Part shown: in pieces, positions 25,531 through 32,977 of the stretch
Position numbering within the stretch: the first letter of the stretch is position 1
Layout of the letters: each line of letters starts with the position of its first letter
NCBI GenBank assembly: GCA_965249065.1
Contig: CBDFLG010000002.1
Location: 2,169,960 to 2,233,959, forward strand
DNA length: 64,000 nucleotides
Source of the DNA: Dehalococcoidia bacterium
GTDB lineage: Bacteria > Chloroflexota > Dehalococcoidia > Lucifugimonadales > UBA3495
Direction: 5' to 3'
Notes under the pieces: model-generated
What the model saw: the letters and a program-made list of their open reading frames with translations, nothing else
What the model was told of the DNA's origin: nothing
Databases searched by the model: none
Translations under genes and position numbers: made by a program

Positions 25531-26601
25531 ATGGCGGAGTATAACCTGGCAGTGATTCCCGGCGACGGCGTGGGGCCGGAGGTTATCGCCGAGGGACGCA
25601 AGACGCTGGAGGCGCTGGCTTCCTCGGGCGGCCCGGCCTTCCGGTTCACCGAATTTCCTTGGGGCAGCGCCTACTACCGTGAGACGGGGCGCCTGATGCC
25701 GGAAGACGGGCTGGAACTGCTGTCCGGTTTCGACGCCATCCTGTTCGGCGCGGTGGGCGACCCGGACATTCCCGACCATATCACGCTACACGGGCTGTTG
25801 CTGCCCATGCGCCGAGGCTTCGACCAGGGCGTATGCGTGCGTCCGGCCTATCTCTACCCCGGCGTTACCTCGCCCCTGTCCGGCAAACAGCCCGGCGACA
25901 TTGATATGGTCATCTTCCGTGAGAACACTGAGGGCGAATACGCCCCCGTGGGCGGACGCCTCAACGCCGGCACGCCCCACGAGACGGTCATCCAGAGCAA
26001 CGTCTTCACCCGCCGCGGCACCGAGCGCATCATCCGCGCCGCCTTCGAGCATTGCGTCCGCCGCAACAAGCGCAACAAAGTGACGTCGGTAACCAAGTCC
26101 AACGCCCAGTCCTTCGGCATGGTCTTCTGGGATGAGGTCTTCGAAGATGTGGCCTCCGAGTACCCGCAGGTGGAAACCGAGTCGCTGCTGGTGGACCGGG
26201 CCTGCATGGACTTTGTGCGCTGGCCCGAGGACTTCGACGTGGTGGTAGCCTCCAACCTGTTCGGCGACATCTTGTCGGACATCGCGGCGGTGGTGTCGGG
26301 CAGCATGGGCTTGGCCCCCAGCGCCAACATCAACCCCGACAAGCTGCACCCGTCGCTGTTCGAGCCGGTGCATGGCGCGGCCTTCGACATTATGGGCAAG
26401 GGCATAGCCAACCCATTGGCCACCGTATCCGCCGTGGCGATGATGCTGGACCACCTCGGCGAGGCCGAAGCCGCCGCCCGCGTGGACGCCGCCGTAGCCC
26501 GCTGCCTCGAAGAGCGCCACGTCGTGACCGCCGACCTAGGCGGCAACGCCAGCACATCGCAGATGGGCGACGAGGCGGCCCGCCTGGTGCGCGAGGGGTA
26601 G
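25531..26601 (+). CDS. tartrate/3-isopropylmalate dehydrogenase family
   Basis: PGDGVGPEV, RENTEGEY, TKSNA, NLFGDILSD, EPVHG. Confidence 0.92.
   Translation: MAEYNLAVIPGDGVGPEVIAEGRKTLEALASSGGPAFRFTEFPWGSAYYRETGRLMPEDGLELLSGFDAILFGAVGDPDIPDHITLHGLLLPMRRGFDQGVCVRPAYLYPGVTSPLSGKQPGDIDMVIFRENTEGEYAPVGGRLNAGTPHETVIQSNVFTRRGTERIIRAAFEHCVRRNKRNKVTSVTKSNAQSFGMVFWDEVFEDVASEYPQVETESLLVDRACMDFVRWPEDFDVVVASNLFGDILSDIAAVVSGSMGLAPSANINPDKLHPSLFEPVHGAAFDIMGKGIANPLATVSAVAMMLDHLGEAEAAARVDAAVARCLEERHVVTADLGGNASTSQMGDEAARLVREG
26497..26601 (+). repeat. direct repeat copy 1 (3' end of dehydrogenase gene)
   Basis: ~100 bp closely matching 27463-27564. Confidence 0.9.
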
Positions 26602-26648: not shown

Positions 26649-27008
26649 ATGATTTTCGACCTCGAAGCCATACCCCTCAATATTCCCGAGGGCGCGCCTT
26701 TGTACCGGGATGAGCGCGGCACCGTCCGGGTGCTAAACAGCCGCGTTCTGTTGGATATAGTTATAGGCGCGTTCACTCTGGGATACAGTGCCGAAGAGGT
26801 TTCGAGCCAGTACCCGACGGCCAGCGCCGCCGCTTTGGAAAGAGTACTTGCCTATTACAAAGACCGCAAAAGCGAAGTTGATGAGTACCTCAGGATTCGC
26901 CGTGAACGGGCAGACAAAATCAGGGCGCACATAGAGTCCCAACCTGAATACGTCGCATGGCTAAAACGGATGAGGGAACGGGCACTGGAAAAAGGTTCGG
27001 TCAAGTGA
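26649..27008 (+). CDS. DUF433 antitoxin
   Basis: GTVRVLNSRVLLD...GYSAEEVSSQYP...LAYY. Confidence 0.88.
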   Translation: MIFDLEAIPLNIPEGAPLYRDERGTVRVLNSRVLLDIVIGAFTLGYSAEEVSSQYPTASAAALERVLAYYKDRKSEVDEYLRIRRERADKIRAHIESQPEYVAWLKRMRERALEKGSVK

Positions 27009-27358
27009 CTCGCTTTCTGGCCGACGAAAATTTCAACTTCGACATCATCGAAGGTTTGTTGAGGCGAGACCCTGACATAGACCTCATCCGCGCCCAAGAT
27101 GTCAATTTGGCTCAAACCCCGGACCCGATAGTGCTGGAGCGGGCAGCGGAGATGGGCCGGGTGTTGTTGACACACGACTATGATGATATGCCTTTCTACA
27201 TTGACGAAAGACTCCGTGCCGGTCTTCCAATGCCGGGTGTGGCGCAAGTTCCTTGGAATATGCCGCTTGGCCCGGCCATTGATGACCTCCTGCTCCTAAT
27301 TGGATGCAGCCTGGAATACGAATGGGAGAACCAAGTGCGCTACCTGCCGCTTCGGTGA
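27005..27358 (+). CDS. DUF5615 PIN-like toxin
   Basis: RFLADENF, DPIVLERA, GRVLLTHD; GTGA overlap with DUF433. Confidence 0.88.
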   Translation: MTRFLADENFNFDIIEGLLRRDPDIDLIRAQDVNLAQTPDPIVLERAAEMGRVLLTHDYDDMPFYIDERLRAGLPMPGVAQVPWNMPLGPAIDDLLLLIGCSLEYEWENQVRYLPLR

Positions 27359-27462
27359 GGCACCTGCCACAGGCCGATTATCTTCCCCCGCCCCAGCGCC
27401 GTTGCCGGATGACCAATCAGTGGCGCTGCTTTAGGCACCTGCAAATCCTCACGCTCCCTAAC

Positions 27463-27564
27463 GCCCGCTGCCTCGAAGAGCGCCGAGTGCTGACCGCCGA
27501 TCTAGGCGGCAACGCCAGCACATCGCAGATGGGCGACGAGGCGGCGCGGCTGGTGCGCGAGTAG
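27463..27564 (+). repeat. direct repeat copy 2 (orphan dehydrogenase 3' end)
   Basis: Encodes ARCLEERRVLTADLGGNASTSQMGDEAARLVRE*. Confidence 0.9.
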
Positions 27565-27603
27565 TGGCCCGTTTGTCCAGGTAGGCAACAGAGCAAAGCT
27601 CGA

Positions 27604-27828
27604 CTATTCTATCTTTATTTCGGAGATATATTCGACTTCGATATTTTTACCGCAACTGTGGCAGTAAAGTGCCAGTATCCCCATGTCGGTGGATTCGGAG
27701 CGTAGATGAATCAGCTTGTCGCCCTCAGCGAGGAAAACTGGGTATGTGTCTAAACCCCCCATAACTTCGTCTGAGCCACAATGGCGGCAGGCATACTTAG
27801 GTAACGCCGAGTTGTCGTCGCAGGTCAT
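27604..27828 (-). CDS. small CxxC...CxxC zinc-ribbon protein
   Basis: CRHC and CHSC; GGGAG RBS 5 nt before ATG. Confidence 0.65.
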   Translation of the reverse strand: MTCDDNSALPKYACRHCGSDEVMGGLDTYPVFLAEGDKLIHLRSESTDMGILALYCHSCGKNIEVEYISEIKIE

Positions 27829-27862
27829 CTTATCTCCCAATCTTGGCATCGAATCGATTTAA

Positions 27863-27898
27863 GATCGGGATCGTTGATCAATCGGCCTGTTTTGTCAA
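27863..27898 (-). promoter_or_regulatory. sigma70-like promoter with three GATC sites over -10/+1
   Basis: TTGACA (27898-27893), 17 bp, AACGAT; GATC at 27876, 27869 and 27863. Confidence 0.55.
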
Positions 27899-27954
27899 GT
27901 CATCGAAGGGCCGATTTGAGCACAAATTGAGAATGACCAATTAGCCTGGCAACC

Positions 27955-28785
27955 CTAGTTCATTGTCCGGCGGTAGAAACCCTTCCCGAGGAACTCTACC
28001 AAGCCCAGGTCTCGCAGAATCTGTAACTGCTGACGCAACTTGGGGCGCACGTTTTGATTCCTCGGGTATTCCCTAGCCGCCATTGGACTACATACCGCAA
28101 GCAAGTCTGAGATTTGAAATCCACTGTCCGGCATTGCCAGCACTCCCTGAAGAGTAAGTCGTGTCCATCCCTTGAATCCTTCAACTAGCGCGGCATCGTC
28201 AGAGATTGAAAAATGCGCTTCGATTGCTGGCGCATTGTCCTCAGAATAATAATGGGACCCCGGTGCAAAAGGATGAACTGGTAAAGTAACTTTAATGGCC
28301 TCTACCGAAGCCCTTATAGCCTCAAGTTCTTCAAGTTTCACTTCGGCGGGATGGCGCCTCGACCCAAATCCCTTCAGCAGCGTTGTGGCCAATTGGTTTG
28401 CCAATTTTTCGTCTTGTGTGGCAAGTCCGCATTCCAAATTGCGATACATACCGGATACAGTGGCATTTGCGGATGTGACCAAAGCGGCATCATCGAAGAT
28501 GTACATTTTGGCATGAAGATTCCCTAAGGTCTTAATCGTGACGCCATCTGCCGCAAGGTCACAGAGAGAGTCAAGACTAGAGGCCCCCAAGGCAAAATCG
28601 CGCAGGTCAGTTCTAGTTATTAAGATGCGGGATACATCCTTGGAAACTCGGTTGGTCAGACCAAATATCCCACTGTTTACGTACGGACTCCCGATAAGCA
28701 TTCGAGACCTGCAAGCCGGTGCGAATTTGGCCAGCCAGTCGAATGTAGGCGTTGTAACTATTTGCAAGCCGTCATTAAACGCCAT
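27955..28785 (-). CDS. PLD(HKD) nuclease fused to DpnI-type winged-helix domain; putative m6A-dependent restriction endonuclease
   Basis: HAKMYIFD..VTSAN HKD motif; C-terminal YPRNQNVRPKLRQQLQILRDLGLVEFLGKGFYR like the DpnI C-terminal domain. Confidence 0.85.
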   Translation of the reverse strand: MAFNDGLQIVTTPTFDWLAKFAPACRSRMLIGSPYVNSGIFGLTNRVSKDVSRILITRTDLRDFALGASSLDSLCDLAADGVTIKTLGNLHAKMYIFDDAALVTSANATVSGMYRNLECGLATQDEKLANQLATTLLKGFGSRRHPAEVKLEELEAIRASVEAIKVTLPVHPFAPGSHYYSEDNAPAIEAHFSISDDAALVEGFKGWTRLTLQGVLAMPDSGFQISDLLAVCSPMAAREYPRNQNVRPKLRQQLQILRDLGLVEFLGKGFYRRTMN

Positions 28786-29005
28786 CGCTGCGGTCCCACT
28801 CGCCCTTGTTGACACTTACGCGCTTTCCCGCTACGCAAGTCACGCCGTCGTTGGATAGCAGATAAGGAGGGTCTGTCCAGATGCAATCTACGCTGTCCGG
28901 CGGCAGCGAGGCCATCACGGACAGGGCTTCCCCGCGATACAACGTGGATTGTCCGTCAACTGACTGCCAGACCACCTGCTCATTCGAAACGTTGCCGGGT
29001 GTCAT
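28775..29005 (-). pseudogene. truncated beta-class N6-adenine DNA methyltransferase (DpnB-like N-terminus)
   Basis: DCIWTDPPYLLSNDG...VSVNKGEWD then stop; target-recognition and SAM-binding regions absent. Confidence 0.82.
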
Positions 29006-29376
29006 CAAGCTAACCCCTCTGGTTTCAGGTTTCTGTTACGATAACGAACGTAGGCAGCTGAGTTGATTTCGTCAATCGCGGCCTGCCCTATCTTTCCGCT
29101 TTTCAGCCACTCAACGGCGTCTTTTACGATGATGCTCTCAAAGTATGCCAATTCTTCCTGCAAGCGGTCGCCCGGTTCAGCTCCGCGAATTGCCCGGTCT
29201 ACGGCATCATACAGAATACAGGTTTGCACTTCATCAAGTTCGCTTAGGCGATAAAATCCGCCTGTCGGCATATCTAGCCCGGACTGGTGGCCTAGCATCT
29301 CAATGACCGCCATCGCCACCGACTGCCGGGACGGATAAAGCAATACGGGTTGCCACTCTTGGTAAGGGTCAGCCAT
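29005..29376 (-). CDS. hypothetical protein coupled to the methyltransferase
   Basis: 123 aa; GGAG RBS; TGATG overlap with MTase start. Confidence 0.6.
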   Translation of the reverse strand: MADPYQEWQPVLLYPSRQSVAMAVIEMLGHQSGLDMPTGGFYRLSELDEVQTCILYDAVDRAIRGAEPGDRLQEELAYFESIIVKDAVEWLKSGKIGQAAIDEINSAAYVRYRNRNLKPEGLA

Positions 29377-29478
29377 TTCGGACTCTCCGGCTCGATTTGG
29401 CTGAGTATTACAGATCCCTTAACCGTTTCACAATGGCCTACTGTCAGCAGTTCAAGCCATCTGGGCCATACGCTTCCT

Positions 29479-29534
29479 GGCGAGCGGCGAGCGGCGAGCG
29501 GCGAGCGGCGAGCGGCGAGCGGCGAGCGGCGAGC
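29479..29534. repeat. heptamer tandem repeat (GGCGAGC)x8
   Basis: Perfect 8 copies counted. Confidence 0.95.
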
Positions 29535-29539
29535 GTAGC

Positions 29540-29924
29540 TTACCAGCCGAAGCGGTACCAATCCTGTTGCTGCCGTTGCCACTCCCACATCTGATTATCC
29601 AGGCTTTGCCTCTCAGATACGAATTGTGAACCAGATTTGCCCACACATCCGGGGAAACTTGGCCCCAAGGAGCCAGAATGCCCGCATGACGCTGGTCAAG
29701 AATTCCCCAAGCATTAAGGGCCGTCCAAAATTGATGCAATTCTCCGAAATCCCGGCGGTTATAAGTAACCAGTATTCGATCGGTTCTTGCCGCAATCAGT
29801 AGATGCTCTGGGTCAGACGCTGAGTGATTTCCCCAATCGTAGGCGTGAACCGCGTCATGGGAATGTCTCGTGAGAATATCCCTCACCTCACAGAGATATT
29901 CTCATCCAAGTAGAAGCGTGGCAT
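29540..29924 (-). pseudogene. DUF5615 PIN toxin with two single-base frameshifts
   Basis: MPRFYLDENIS / DRILVTYNRRDF / HAGIL in different frames. Confidence 0.78.
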
Positions 29925-30145
29925 CAATTGGCTATCTCATATAGCTTCCGCTCGATTTCTTCGGGGTTGTCCCTGTAGAAGGCCAGCGCCGCTTCCAGTT
30001 CCTCGAGAGTAAGCCACCCGGAATAGGACTTCAGAACCTTGTTCCTGTCTTTCTCGTAGGCGAAGTAGATGTTTATCACCGACCAAACCGGCATTCCCAT
30101 GCGCCGCATGATAGTCTTCCCGCGCACTCGGCGAGGATTTTCACC
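29924..30145 (-). pseudogene. DUF433 antitoxin, 5' end lost at the IS630 boundary
   Basis: GMPVWSVI...LTLEELEAALAFYRDNPEEIE. Confidence 0.75.
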
Positions 30146-31167
30146 TAAACCAAAGCCAAGGTGGGAAGTGCATTTGCCGTGCGCTGAGAATGGGTGTGGA
30201 GGACTAGCAAAAGGCTTTGGGCCCTTGATTGCAGGACGGTCCGGCAGCGCCGTTTCACCTCCTCCTTACGGCTGGCCAGCTCGGCAAGGAAATTGTTGAC
30301 CTTTTCCTGCACCAGGGCCTTGGTTCCCAAGCACAGGTTACCGGTGGCCTCCTCCCATTCCACATCGCCCATCTCCAAGCATACCGCCGAGTAGTAGCTG
30401 GCCTTCTCGCCACGGCGCGGGCTGGTCGAGTCCACCAAGGTCGGCTCTCCCTTCAGCACCCACTTGCCCCGCAGTTCGGCGTCCGCACGGAAGTGGGCCT
30501 CGTCGGCGAAGAATACCTTCGCTCCAGTACGCCGCGCCTCGTCCGAAAGGGTGGCGTATTCCACTACGAACGACTCCCGCTTCCTCTCGTCAGCTTTGAC
30601 CAGACGCTTCTTGGGACGCTTCAGCGCATATCCCAGCCGATGCAGCCAGCCGATGCAGATAGTTTAGGCAACTACTGCGGCTCAGGCCGATGCCGAAGCG
30701 TCCCGAGACATACTCATGGACCACTTCCAGTTCCAGTTGGCCATCTCGATGCCCGGCTCGGCGGGCAACTCCTGCGCCGCCGCCTTCAGTTCCCCCTGCT
30801 GCGCCTCGCCGAGGGCGGGGGGGACCCTCCGGACTGCTCGAAAATCAATGCCGCCGGACCGCCCTCGCCGAAGGCGGCAGCCCATCTGCCTATGGTGTGG
30901 GGATCCCGTCCCATAGCCTCTGCCGTAGCCGCGGCCGTCCAACTTTGGGCTAGCAGCCAGAGGGCGTGCCATCTTTCCCTCTCCCGGGGCGTGGGAGCCA
31001 GAATCATCCGCCTGTACAAATCCCTGGCATCCATTTCCCATTGTTCGAGGAACCGCTCCATTTCCCTCACACCCATCACCATCCCCTCTCTCACTACAGA
31101 ACAGGCTAACACAGTCTTCCACAACTCTACCCCATCCGCCTGCGCGTTTCACCTTGGCTTTGGTTTA
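30146..31167 (-). mobile_element. IS630-family element, decayed and internally deleted
   Basis: TIR TAAACCAAAGCCAAGGTG at both ends, each in a CTA/TAG context; HTH (RERERWHALWLL) and FFADEAHF DDE fragments. Confidence 0.85.
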
Positions 31168-32347
31168 GTATGAGTTTATCCGGCAGCTCATCAACTGCCT
31201 GGAGCGCTATGGCCAAAAGGTTCAGCGCAGCGTTCTCGTTCCGGTCGTGGCGTACGCCGCACCCTGGACAGGTCCAGTACAATTCCCGGTCCAGTTCGGC
31301 GTTGTGGCAGCCGCAAGCGGAACAGAGCTTGCTCGATGCGTAGAACCGGCCGGCCGGCACGATGATGGTTCCGTACCAGGGTCCCTTGTAGCGGATCTTC
31401 AGCAGCAGGCCCCCGATGGCGGCGTCCCGGATGGACCGGGCCTGATGCCGCAGCCGGTCCATGTTGGCCACGTTCAGGGTCTCAATGCAGAGGACGGCGA
31501 ACTTCTTGATCAGGTGGCAGCTGAGCTGATGGTGGGCGTTCTGCCGGAGGTTCACGATGTGCCGGTAAGCGGTGTTGACGCGCCTTTGTGCTTCGTGCCA
31601 GCCTCGGGAGCCGGGGGTGCGCCGGGCTGATGCCCGTTGGCAACGGGCCAGTTTAGACAGGTATAGGTAGAGAGCCTTGGGGTTCTCGTAGTGCACCAGC
31701 GCGCTGTCCACCGCCAGGGGGTTCTGGCCCACGTCCGCCGCGCCGAAGACGTGGGTCTTGTCCCCGGCAATGGCGGGCGGCTTCCAGTAATTCACGCTGG
31801 CGTACCATTCTCCGTTCTGTTTCTTGATCCTGACCTCGTAGGGGATTCCCTCCGGGAGTTCCCGTTTGAGTTTCACCGAGCCCAGACGGGGCAGCTTGAT
31901 CCGGTGATGTCCGTCGTACTTGACTGGGTCCACACCGGAGGCGGCGAGGAAGAATCCGGTGCCGTTGCGGTTTTTCTTCTTGAGGCGAGGCTTGCGGGCC
32001 TTGAGCTCGGGATTGCGCCAGTTCTCATAGGCGCGGCGGAAGTCTAGGCAGGCTCCCTGCGCCACGAACTTGCTCACCTCGGCAGCGTATTGCATCCCGA
32101 ACTTGGGCTGGCGCTTCAGCAGGTTGAAGGTCTTTTCCAATTCCATAGGGCTGGGCCATAGTCCGGCACCGTGGGCGCGGGCCAGCCGGTGGGTGGCGAC
32201 CATCTGGTTGAAGACGGAGCGGGCGATGCCGATGCTGCGGGCGGCGTAGCGTTCCTGCTTGGCCGTGAGGTCGACCGGAGCCACTATGCCAGCCTTGAGC
32301 CAGCCCTCGGGGCAGCTGGTTTTCTGGTACTTGCGCTTTTTGACCAT
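31127..32347 (-). CDS. tnpB: IS607-associated TnpB; C-terminus read into IS630
   Basis: RuvC-I ADVG, RuvC-II IETLNV, SSKLCSACG...CPGCG Zn finger, HDRNENAALN. Confidence 0.9.
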   Translation of the reverse strand: MVKKRKYQKTSCPEGWLKAGIVAPVDLTAKQERYAARSIGIARSVFNQMVATHRLARAHGAGLWPSPMELEKTFNLLKRQPKFGMQYAAEVSKFVAQGACLDFRRAYENWRNPELKARKPRLKKKNRNGTGFFLAASGVDPVKYDGHHRIKLPRLGSVKLKRELPEGIPYEVRIKKQNGEWYASVNYWKPPAIAGDKTHVFGAADVGQNPLAVDSALVHYENPKALYLYLSKLARCQRASARRTPGSRGWHEAQRRVNTAYRHIVNLRQNAHHQLSCHLIKKFAVLCIETLNVANMDRLRHQARSIRDAAIGGLLLKIRYKGPWYGTIIVPAGRFYASSKLCSACGCHNAELDRELYWTCPGCGVRHDRNENAALNLLAIALQAVDELPDKLILNQSQGETRRRMG

Positions 32348-32975
32348 AGTGTCTATTCCCGTATTGCGGCGAGGGCTTTCTTGGCCCGGTTGGCCGCGCT
32401 TCGCCGTCCGTAGAGACAGGCACAGAAGCAGGTCAGTATCTCCGTCATATCCCGGACCATATCGTCATTGATTTCTTTGTCTTCAACAATCAGGAGTCCA
32501 CCGCCACGGGCCTGCAGCATGGCTGCCACCATGCCGGTGCCGAATCTGGCCAGCCGGTCCCGGTGCTCAACCAAGATTGTCCCCACCTTGGGATCGGCCA
32601 GCAGGCGGAGCAGTTTGGGCCTCCGGCCGTTCAGGCCGCTGGCGACTTCTGACACTACCCGGTCCAATGTGATGCCGTTCTGTCCGGCATGGGCCCACAG
32701 ACGGTTGGCCTGTGGTTGCAACTGCGCTTTTTGGTCGTGGCTGGACACCCTGGCGTATCGCACGGTCAGCAAAGCTGGCTCTGCATCAGGCAGTATGATA
32801 TACCAGATACGTCCCACCTTCTCGACCTGGAGGTTGGGGGGCAACCGGTCCTCGTTGAGCATTCTCCAAGTGGATTGTGGATCGAGGCCGTACTGACGGC
32901 CCCAGTCGGTCAACCTGATGCGTCTGCCTATAATCATGAGTAAAAGTATAAAAACTATTAAGCGAGGGTGTGACA
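31168..32975 (-). mobile_element. IS607 element, right end lost
   Basis: tnpA-tnpB tandem; left boundary approximate. Confidence 0.75.
32353..32937 (-). CDS. tnpA: IS607 serine-recombinase transposase
   Basis: N-terminal HTH, YARVSSHDQK, EVASGLNGRRP, VEHRDRLARFG, LYGRRSA. Confidence 0.92.
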   Translation of the reverse strand: MIIGRRIRLTDWGRQYGLDPQSTWRMLNEDRLPPNLQVEKVGRIWYIILPDAEPALLTVRYARVSSHDQKAQLQPQANRLWAHAGQNGITLDRVVSEVASGLNGRRPKLLRLLADPKVGTILVEHRDRLARFGTGMVAAMLQARGGGLLIVEDKEINDDMVRDMTEILTCFCACLYGRRSAANRAKKALAAIRE

Positions 32976-32977
32976 AA

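Follow-up and report, generated by a model that had tools for sequence, protein, structure and literature searches.

The nuclease locus and its putative promoter

We analysed a 64,000-nucleotide (nt) stretch of the genome of a Dehalococcoidia bacterium (contig CBDFLG010000002.1, positions 2,169,960 to 2,233,959; hereafter the window), in which a putative promoter with three closely spaced GATC sites lies between the gene of a predicted methylation-dependent nuclease and that of a zinc (Zn) ribbon microprotein. The nuclease, in which a PLD domain is followed by a winged-helix (wH) domain of the DpnI type, belongs to a family that has already been published; what is new is that an element of the form TTGACA-N13/14-GATCAACGATC recurs beside such nucleases and before small acidic genes. 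The features of the locus are as follows, with lengths in amino acids (aa) and with Gm6ATC denoting a GATC site that carries N6-methyladenine (m6A).

27604..27828, minus strand: acidic Zn-ribbon microprotein of 74 aa (CxxC..CxxC), its start fixed by three homologues of 74–80 aa
27834..27838, minus strand: Shine-Dalgarno-like GGGAG, 5 nt before the ATG
27863..27866, minus strand: third GATC, over the presumed transcription start
27869..27879, minus strand: core GATCAACGATC, two GATC 7 bp apart around the presumed -10 hexamer AACGAT (27875-27870)
27893..27898, minus strand: -35 hexamer TTGACA, read from the sequence
27955..28785, minus strand: PLD-wH nuclease of 276 aa, predicted Gm6ATC-dependent type IV restriction enzyme

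A first-pass annotation had described TTGACA, a 17-bp spacer and AACGAT with three GATC sites, followed by GGGAG and the CxxC gene, and both its coordinates and its description proved correct when the minus strand was read again. The three sites (27879-27876, 27872-27869 and 27866-27863) form a triplet 35 nt upstream of the 74-aa gene and, relative to the presumed start, occupy positions -16 to -13, -9 to -6 and -3 to +1, so that methylatable targets overlap the core promoter elements. TTGACA matches the -35 consensus at 6/6 positions with a spacer of 17 nt, and AACGAT matches TATAAT at 3/6, with A-11 and T-7 present. The 11-mer core is a direct repeat, not an inverted repeat, and a search of 27300-29700 against Rfam returned nothing at E ≤ 1.

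The open reading frame (ORF) of the nuclease (27955-28815) could encode 286 aa, and alignment of 28 homologues placed the probable start at the second Met (28785). Pfam matches were to PLDc_2 (7.6e-09), PLDc (1e-4) and, at the C-terminus, DpnI_C (1.3e-15); the HxK residues H101, A102 and K103 (286-aa numbering) were invariant in the 28 sequences, and residues 215-283 matched the PADLOC model mREase_II for methyl-directed type II enzymes (3.1e-10). A profile of 40 homologues, when compared with solved structures, matched only DpnI, in its wH domain (4esj/4kyw; E 5.7e-10). In DpnI the two m6A-methyl pockets are walled by E228, K229, R231, Q232 and Q235 (PMC3424567), which correspond to a conserved (E/P)-K-L-R-Q-Q-L-Q in the nuclease family; the nuclease in the window keeps four of the five (K229, R231, Q232 and Q235) and has Pro in place of E228, where many relatives have Glu. 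Since the wH domain is DpnI-like and most of the pocket is preserved, the proposal of the first-pass annotation that the promoter GATCs are linked to the reader domain of the neighbouring nuclease appears reasonable.

Judged by domain architecture and methyl-pocket features, the nuclease falls within the PLD-wH family, in which the fusions Aba4572I and CbaI (Chloroflexi bacterium) were published as Gm6ATC-dependent type IV enzymes (Helbrecht 2024, PMC11037411, main text). The same main text describes Dam-methylation-dependent cleavage or toxicity for CbaI in E. coli, reports that some PLD-wH enzymes are toxic or inexpressible alone, even in Dam- cells, and invokes tight expression control to avoid conflict. 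It lists 27 PLD-wH proteins, compared to the 434 relatives that we recovered at E ≤ 1e-3. In the genome examined here the nuclease is the only gene with a DpnI_C domain.

Conservation of the element and its partner genes

GATC is rare in this genome. The window contains 120 sites, compared to 274.7 ± 16.6 in 100 shuffles, and the whole genome contains 6,275 sites in 3,828,252 bases, an observed-to-expected ratio (O/E) under a second-order Markov model of 0.42, the lowest among the 16 palindromic tetramers. Although GATC was the most depleted of these tetramers, a GATC-cutting Type II system was not seen, none having been looked for specifically; a restriction system that once acted on GATC, or off-target cutting by the PLD-wH nuclease, could account for the depletion. 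At the loci of relatives the ratio differed between clades, those of the Zn-ribbon clade being GATC-poor (0.16-0.70) and those of Group 2, defined below, not (0.86-1.59). The triplet at 27863-27879 is the only one in the genome that spans ≤13 bp and one of three that span ≤20 bp. From the genome counts, a Poisson model leads one to expect about 1.4 such triplets per genome, and the triplet alone is therefore unremarkable, as it should be if the cluster had arisen by chance and had no function. The weight is carried instead by its position, 76 bp beyond the one gene in the genome with a DpnI_C domain, and by its conservation in relatives.

To follow the element in relatives, one genome per species was scanned, which gave 173 nuclease relatives; the best 80 loci, mostly from Dehalococcoidia metagenome-assembled genomes (MAGs), were kept and, together with the window, made up a set of 81, whose nucleases were placed on a quick maximum-likelihood tree. 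The motif TTGAC(A/T)-N13/14-GATCAA(C/T/A)GAT(C) was found no more than about 400 bp from the nuclease gene in 19 of the 81 loci. All 19 have a -35 box 13 or 14 nt upstream of GATCAACGATC (TTAAC in L012), and the 11-mer is nearly invariant among them, in contrast to a divergent spacer, 5' leader and upstream DNA. The sole variable base of the core is the third of the presumed -10 hexamer (C/T/A), where real -10 boxes are constrained the least; the final C of the core has been lost in L012 and L044. On the tree the motif occurs in four separate clades (Zn clade, 5/5; G2a, 8/10; G2b, 3/3; G3, 3/3), interleaved with clades that lack it, and the nuclease of the window is 78% identical to that of L061 and 52-64% identical to the other motif-bearing nucleases compared. 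The first-pass annotation had expected GATC clusters upstream of homologues, and this expectation was borne out: the -35 box and the two GATCs that flank the -10 are kept before Zn-ribbon homologues throughout the nuclease clade of the window, and before other small partner genes in 14 further loci. The GATC that it placed over the likely start is present in the window, but lies outside the invariant core, being found in 4/5 Group-1 and 2/3 Group-3 loci (it is missing from L005 and L044) and in none of the 11 Group-2 loci, and it would be best regarded as an accessory site. Four Group-2 loci have an extra GATC upstream.

The paired sites are also concentrated at nuclease genes. GATC pairs with 7-bp spacing numbered 18 within ±300 bp of the nuclease genes (48.6 kb) versus 5 in the remaining 404 kb, one of which is the true motif of L023, at -391; the far rate would predict 0.6 pairs near the nucleases (Poisson 9e-21, a value overstated by the kinship of the loci). 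Against a chance cluster, then, stand its conservation across four clades (19 loci, whose flanks have diverged), the 30-fold enrichment of such pairs near the nuclease genes and its position beside the genome's only DpnI_C gene, and we give chance next to no probability.

The element is likewise specific to the locus within each genome. Six GATCAANGAT sites occur in the genome of the window, one of which, at this locus, is accompanied by TTGACA, and in five other host genomes none of 21 other GATCAANGATC sites had TTGAC at 13-14 nt, most of them appearing to be coding; the motif with its -35 box was thus unique to the nuclease locus in 6/6 genomes examined. These observations bear on the simplest alternative, namely that this is an ordinary constitutive promoter whose 11-mer is kept for RNA polymerase or for an unrelated host factor, its resemblance to the nuclease target being incidental. 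A perfect -35 hexamer, canonical spacing and variation confined to the third hexamer position are all what such a promoter would show. An unrelated factor should, however, have other sites in these genomes, and selection by polymerase alone would favour TAnnnT, as in the TAGGTT promoters of the same loci, over two copies of a word that the genome otherwise depletes, which makes this explanation improbable. The TAGGTT promoters are those of the nuclease genes in Group 1, which have an ordinary promoter of their own (TTGACC-N17-TAGGTT/TAGATT) without a conserved GATC, and the GATC-embedded -10 is therefore a special feature and not the local promoter style.

In all 19 loci a small acidic ORF with a ribosome-binding site begins about 40-70 nt downstream of the motif. 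By gene order and partner, the loci fall into three groups.

Group 1 (window, L061, L005, L006, L013): order nuclease, motif, partner; the partner is a Zn ribbon
Group 2 (11 loci): order motif, partner, nuclease; the partner is a protein of 58-61 aa with an isoelectric point (pI) of about 4.05
Group 3 (L037, L044, L045): the motif points away from the nuclease; the partner is an acidic protein of 164-195 aa

These ORFs represent three apparently unrelated families, although the profile comparison behind this statement covered only the Zn-ribbon and Group-2 families (probability 1.1%, unrelated). Because partner families and gene orders vary, the nuclease, and not any one small protein, is the constant companion of the motif. 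In Group 2 (L011-L032) the leaders between motif and small ORF contain two conserved short hairpin-like palindromes, of the GCGGCATCTTGCCGC and CTAGGCTTGAGCCTAG types. A fourth family of small acidic proteins (88 aa, L007:3827-4090) adjoins PLD-wH genes without a GATC promoter in seven loci (L007, L009, L038, L040, L049, L066 and L075).

That a motif travels with the nuclease across partners could also mean that it acts at the level of DNA, as a preferred nuclease cleavage site once methylated or as a junction for the exchange of partner cassettes. Four partner families and three gene orders meet at the motif, and related wH fusion enzymes are described in the main text of PMC11037411 as cutting best near two tandem modified sites. 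The fixed distance of the motif to TTGACA and to the downstream ribosome-binding site and ORF nevertheless fits a promoter, no recombinase was linked to the motif in the loci inspected, and with some 6,275 GATCs in the genome a special cleavage site would be needless; we consider this explanation very improbable.

The Zn ribbon of the window is acidic (pI 4.7; 4.3-4.9 across the family), and its four Cys are invariant among 12 aligned members, which share further motifs including PKYAC and GDKLIHLRSE. Zn ribbons lie downstream of the nuclease in 9 of the 81 loci, which represent three nuclease clades; the pairing thus persists even where the promoter does not. HMMER searches of 1.84 billion representatives gave 78 relatives at E ≤ 1e-3, mostly of 55-80 aa; no family matched in Pfam, NCBIfam or PADLOC, and Pfam was uninformative for larger fused relatives (P0148, P0186 and others). 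Among 400 sampled genomes of the phylum the Zn ribbon was found only in its own, and a metagenome scan returned one locus (L086), a near copy of L006. The AlphaFold2 model is of moderate confidence (predicted local distance difference test, pLDDT, 77): Foldseek found nothing in the PDB at E ≤ 0.001 (its first-ranked entry, the MqsA N-domain with E 0.65, is uninformative, as is the best Z of 3.6 from a wide VIA-align search), and look-alikes in the Atlas belonged only to unnamed clusters. The Group-2 partner is modelled with a beta-alpha-beta fold (pLDDT 93), for which Foldseek found no match. Its assignment to DpnD-PcfM (PF14207) was considered on the strength of an Atlas look-alike cluster, 11% of whose members carry that family, and was rejected when hmmscan matched 0/13 sequences at E ≤ 10. 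A tblastn search of 50,697 phage records with the Zn ribbon and the Group-2 partner returned nothing at E ≤ 1. Prediction of a complex between nuclease and Zn ribbon, both given as alignments, scored 0.00, which is uninformative either way. No helix-turn-helix family matched the partner proteins and the 11-mer is also not palindromic, so that the features of C-protein/C-box control are absent here.

Methylase genes and the neighbourhood of the locus

Whether the promoter GATCs are methylated depends on the methylases present. The genome has three D12-class methylase genes, each beside a restriction gene, that form Type II-like pairs of a D12 methylase and an endonuclease (L002-L004, at G000:C2:1973626, C1:206120 and C1:1145955); the restriction partners are EcoRV-like (Pfam 5.3e-55), SacI-like and NotI-like. 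With specificities read from these neighbours, no orphan or GATC-type Dam was evident in the genome, and the GATCs of the host are probably unmethylated in normal life. The first-pass annotation had drawn on IS10, pap and agn43, in which a resident Dam switches transcription, and this analogy fails as it was put, because the host appears to be without a GATC Dam; any methylation that the promoter senses would therefore be foreign. As no resident methylase was found that would write the mark on the promoter GATCs, we did not class the promoter with Dam-sensitive or CfrBI-type methylation-controlled promoters, but it may work like that class with a foreign writer.

Two further ORFs lie upstream of the nuclease.

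28775..29008, minus strand: remnant (77 aa) of a CcrM-like beta-class N6-adenine methylase, an N-terminal piece with the DPPY motif only
29005..29376, minus strand: ORF of 123 aa without a Pfam, NCBIfam or PADLOC family; its only relative, a weak one, is in L030 (26% identity)

The first of these had been taken as part of a methylase operon, a designation without basis given that only a DPPY-bearing N-terminal remnant is left, with no Pfam match and weak NCBIfam matches to CcrM. It shares 69% identity with the N-terminus of a methylase of full length (284 aa) that stands beside the nuclease in L026 (3751-4605) and L028, convergent in both. The full-length methylase is CcrM-like, with an NCBIfam match at 1.9e-63 that falls short of the equivalog cut-off and with CcrM as its best relative among solved structures (5.5e-53). 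Immediately upstream of the nuclease the same methylase is truncated to 172 aa in L009 (2425-2943), 77 aa in the window and about 50 aa in L030 (about 2818-2961), a pattern suggestive of repeated decay of one CcrM-like neighbour of PLD-wH genes. A 'dam-replacing' scenario, in which the nuclease would have taken the place of a neighbouring Dam, was rejected, the full-length relative being CcrM-like. The remnant and the 123-aa ORF are both absent from the close relatives L061, L005, L006 and L013. A GATC reported near the supposed operon is present at 29413-29416 and is followed by TGTAAT, but since these ORFs are missing from close relatives it lies in a genome-specific insertion and is not conserved; the insertion with the 123-aa ORF sits between a DUF433/DUF5615 pair and the nuclease.

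Several other features of the neighbourhood were noted. A 99-nt direct repeat (26497-26595 and 27463-27561; 93% identical) corresponds to the 3' end of a dehydrogenase gene (25531-26601) and flanks a 966-bp DUF433/DUF5615 gene pair (26649-27358), an arrangement that looks like insertion into the end of the dehydrogenase gene with target duplication. A perfect 7-nt tandem repeat (GGCGAGC x 8.1, 29479-29535) is located at the end of another DUF5615 ORF (29452-29886, minus strand). Farther along, the ORFs at 31127-32347 and 32353-32976 (minus strand) resemble, by eye, a TnpB-type protein and a serine recombinase, and 30145-31124 contains fragments with HTH_23 and weak DDE_3 matches; the whole of 30145-32976 would be the remains of a mobile element beside the locus.

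Possible mode of action and comparison with known systems

We tentatively favour, with confidence that falls a little short of even, the reading that the GATC promoter would be a conserved cis-regulatory part of Dehalococcoidia PLD-wH modules, in which methylation, wH binding or both control the partner gene. Its starting points are established: the anatomy, conservation and locus specificity of the element, the identity of the nuclease and the lack of an evident Dam. From these we infer a response to methylation or wH binding, the direction of that response and the role of the partner. The TTGACA-N13/14-GATCAACGATC element would serve as a sigma-70-type promoter that drives the small acidic partner gene (in the window, that of the 74-aa Zn ribbon), and its two invariant GATCs would enclose a weak -10 within a word that, when N6-methylated, would also be read by the winged helix of the module. 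In a normal Dam-less cell the sites would be unmethylated and the promoter open. If a phage or plasmid Dam appeared, methylation would weaken the -10 and turn the sites into high-affinity targets for the wH domains of the nuclease, and once methylated or bound, the promoter would switch off the partner gene, together with the nuclease where the two are co-transcribed in relatives. We presume that the partner protein modulates the nuclease: were it a required cofactor, the arrangement would act as an interlock and silence the module in cells methylated by Dam, and were it an inhibitor, as a trigger. The methylated tandem sites would, in addition, be the best targets for a PLD dimer carrying two wH domains. 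The published inexpressibility of PLD-wH proteins alone and their toxicity in Dam- cells fit a partner that acts as stabiliser or inhibitor.

It is possible, though we hold this less firmly, that the promoter more specifically detects non-self methylation, so that Dam activity would flip a small protein that sets the activity of the nuclease, again as interlock or trigger. The Dam could be supplied by a phage or plasmid methylase, or be met when the module is transferred into a Dam+ host. If this were true, it would be, for type IV systems, the first description of a cis-acting modification sensor, and the four small acidic families would be a new class of nuclease partners.

Repression by methylation or binding is favoured because the sites overlie both the -10 and the start, and because Dam represses IS10 and IS50. 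The opposite sign, in which methylation helps the promoter to open or the wH domain recruits RNA polymerase, so that foreign Dam induces the partner (and, in Group 2, the nuclease too), strikes us as quite unlikely. A -10 that matches at 3/6 positions would suit an activatable promoter, and the GATC promoter is the only visible promoter of the Group-2 nuclease; yet sites over the -10 and start usually occlude polymerase, the Group-1 nuclease has its own ordinary promoter, and an enzyme left uninduced could not restrict methylated DNA that arrives without a methylase. Overexpressed PLD-wH enzymes are described as toxic in the main text of PMC11037411, for which keeping the enzyme off until needed would make sense.

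A control that needs no methylation was also considered. PLD nucleases are dimers, and the two wH domains might bind the unmethylated tandem GATCs weakly, as an operator through which feedback caps the amount of enzyme. The motif travels with the nuclease and not with any one partner family, binding by DpnI draws on sequence context besides the methyl groups (as described in PMC3424567), and the same 11-mer (GATCAATGATC) occurs near a PLD-wH gene in an Ignavibacteriales MAG that has no TTGACA box. In this MAG it lies on the minus strand at L060:2761-2771, 246 nt downstream of the PLD-wH gene, and follows a 57-aa acidic ORF. On the other hand, unmethylated GATC is poorly bound by DpnI (PMC3424567), and the Group-1 nuclease gene does not lie downstream of the motif, so that feedback would be indirect. 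We regard an operator of this kind as rather unlikely.

Several observations weigh against the reading that we favour, that of a promoter controlled by methylation or wH binding. The promoter and its start position are themselves read from the sequence, and a consensus promoter scan of 27300-29700 gave 0 sites, because AACGAT departs from TATAAT at half of its positions. The IS10/IS50 precedents and the position of the sites allow no more than a guess at the sign of the effect, and because the Group-1 nuclease lies outside the GATC promoter, silencing there would act only through the partner. The motif is missing from 62 of the 81 loci, and the element is therefore dispensable; a Zn ribbon directly follows the nuclease without the motif in L008, L035, L058 and L059, and the Group-2 protein occurs with a decayed motif or none in L010, L020 and L022. 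The genome G405, host of the Group-2 PLD-wH module at L014, has an orphan Dam-family methylase (L118:1420-2433, 212 bits to TIGR00571) between amidohydrolase and transporter genes; the enzyme is 52% identical to the EcoRV-paired methylase of the window genome and decides nothing either way. Finally, in a sample from Bacillota (399 scored genomes, 11 with a DpnI_C gene, 12 loci), a close GATC pair was found at one of the 12 loci, so that the idea of GATC tandems as a general feature near DpnI_C genes is unsupported. At that locus (L113; G810:C5, around 1763-1777, in a low-GC genome) a stand-alone 87-aa DpnI_C gene is preceded by a TTGACA promoter-like site with two GATCs 11 bp apart. The element would appear to be a feature of one PLD-wH module lineage and not of all methyl-adenine readers.

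In the literature searched, which excluded subscription journals, the titles and abstracts consulted on type IV restriction, GATC promoters, the winged helix and Dam methylation mentioned no such element, and the term 'PLD-wH' occurred only in PMC11037411 and its preprint. The main text of that paper, supplements aside, does not use the words 'promoter' or 'operon' and describes neither a GATC promoter nor families of small partners. The enzymes that it characterises, Aba4572I and CbaI, share architecture (PLD with a DpnI-type wH) and phylum (Chloroflexota) with the nuclease of the window, are usually without a cognate methylase and are noted to have 'hypothetical proteins' beside them. Type IV enzymes are usually treated as unregulated single genes, and a conserved promoter built from the enzyme's own recognition word, placed in every case before a small partner gene, suggests regulated, multi-component modules instead; it also offers an explanation for the inexpressibility of PLD-wH enzymes alone and their toxicity without Dam that the same main text reports (PMC11037411). 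The element, of about 35 bp, might be a natural Gm6ATC-responsive switch, and the four small acidic families are candidate modulators of the nuclease.

Switches with GATC in the promoter are classic in Dam+ bacteria. The pIN promoter of IS10 and the transposase promoter of IS50 are Dam-sensitive, with a GATC in the -10 region, and are repressed by Dam, and three GATCs upstream of the mom gene of phage Mu provide an example of clustered sites that gate a potentially harmful gene. GATCs that overlap or lie near the -10, or that are clustered, are common to these cases and to the element described here. Those systems, however, operate in Dam+ hosts, through hemimethylation after replication or through a block to a repressor, whereas the present host seems Dam-less and would sense foreign methylation only. 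The DpnI cassette of Streptococcus pneumoniae, in which dpnC (DpnI) is followed by the small gene dpnD, likewise couples a Gm6ATC-reading nuclease with a small accessory gene; a link through PF14207 is unconfirmed for the Group-2 partner and there is no such lead for the Zn ribbon, and we know of no GATC promoter in the DpnI cassette.

The closest parallels in design are the Type II systems CfrBI, AhdI and LlaDII, which, as described in PMC12707154, have their own recognition sequence within their own promoter, as is the case here, and in which the methylation state of that sequence sets transcription. Such control of Type II genes by their own methylation is called apparently rare in use (PMC12707154). 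In those systems the mark is written by the cognate methylase that resides in the cell, and it is unmethylated DNA that the enzyme cuts (PMC12707154), whereas here there is no evident resident writer, the enzyme is predicted to read the methylated form, and the gene that the promoter would control is that of a small partner.

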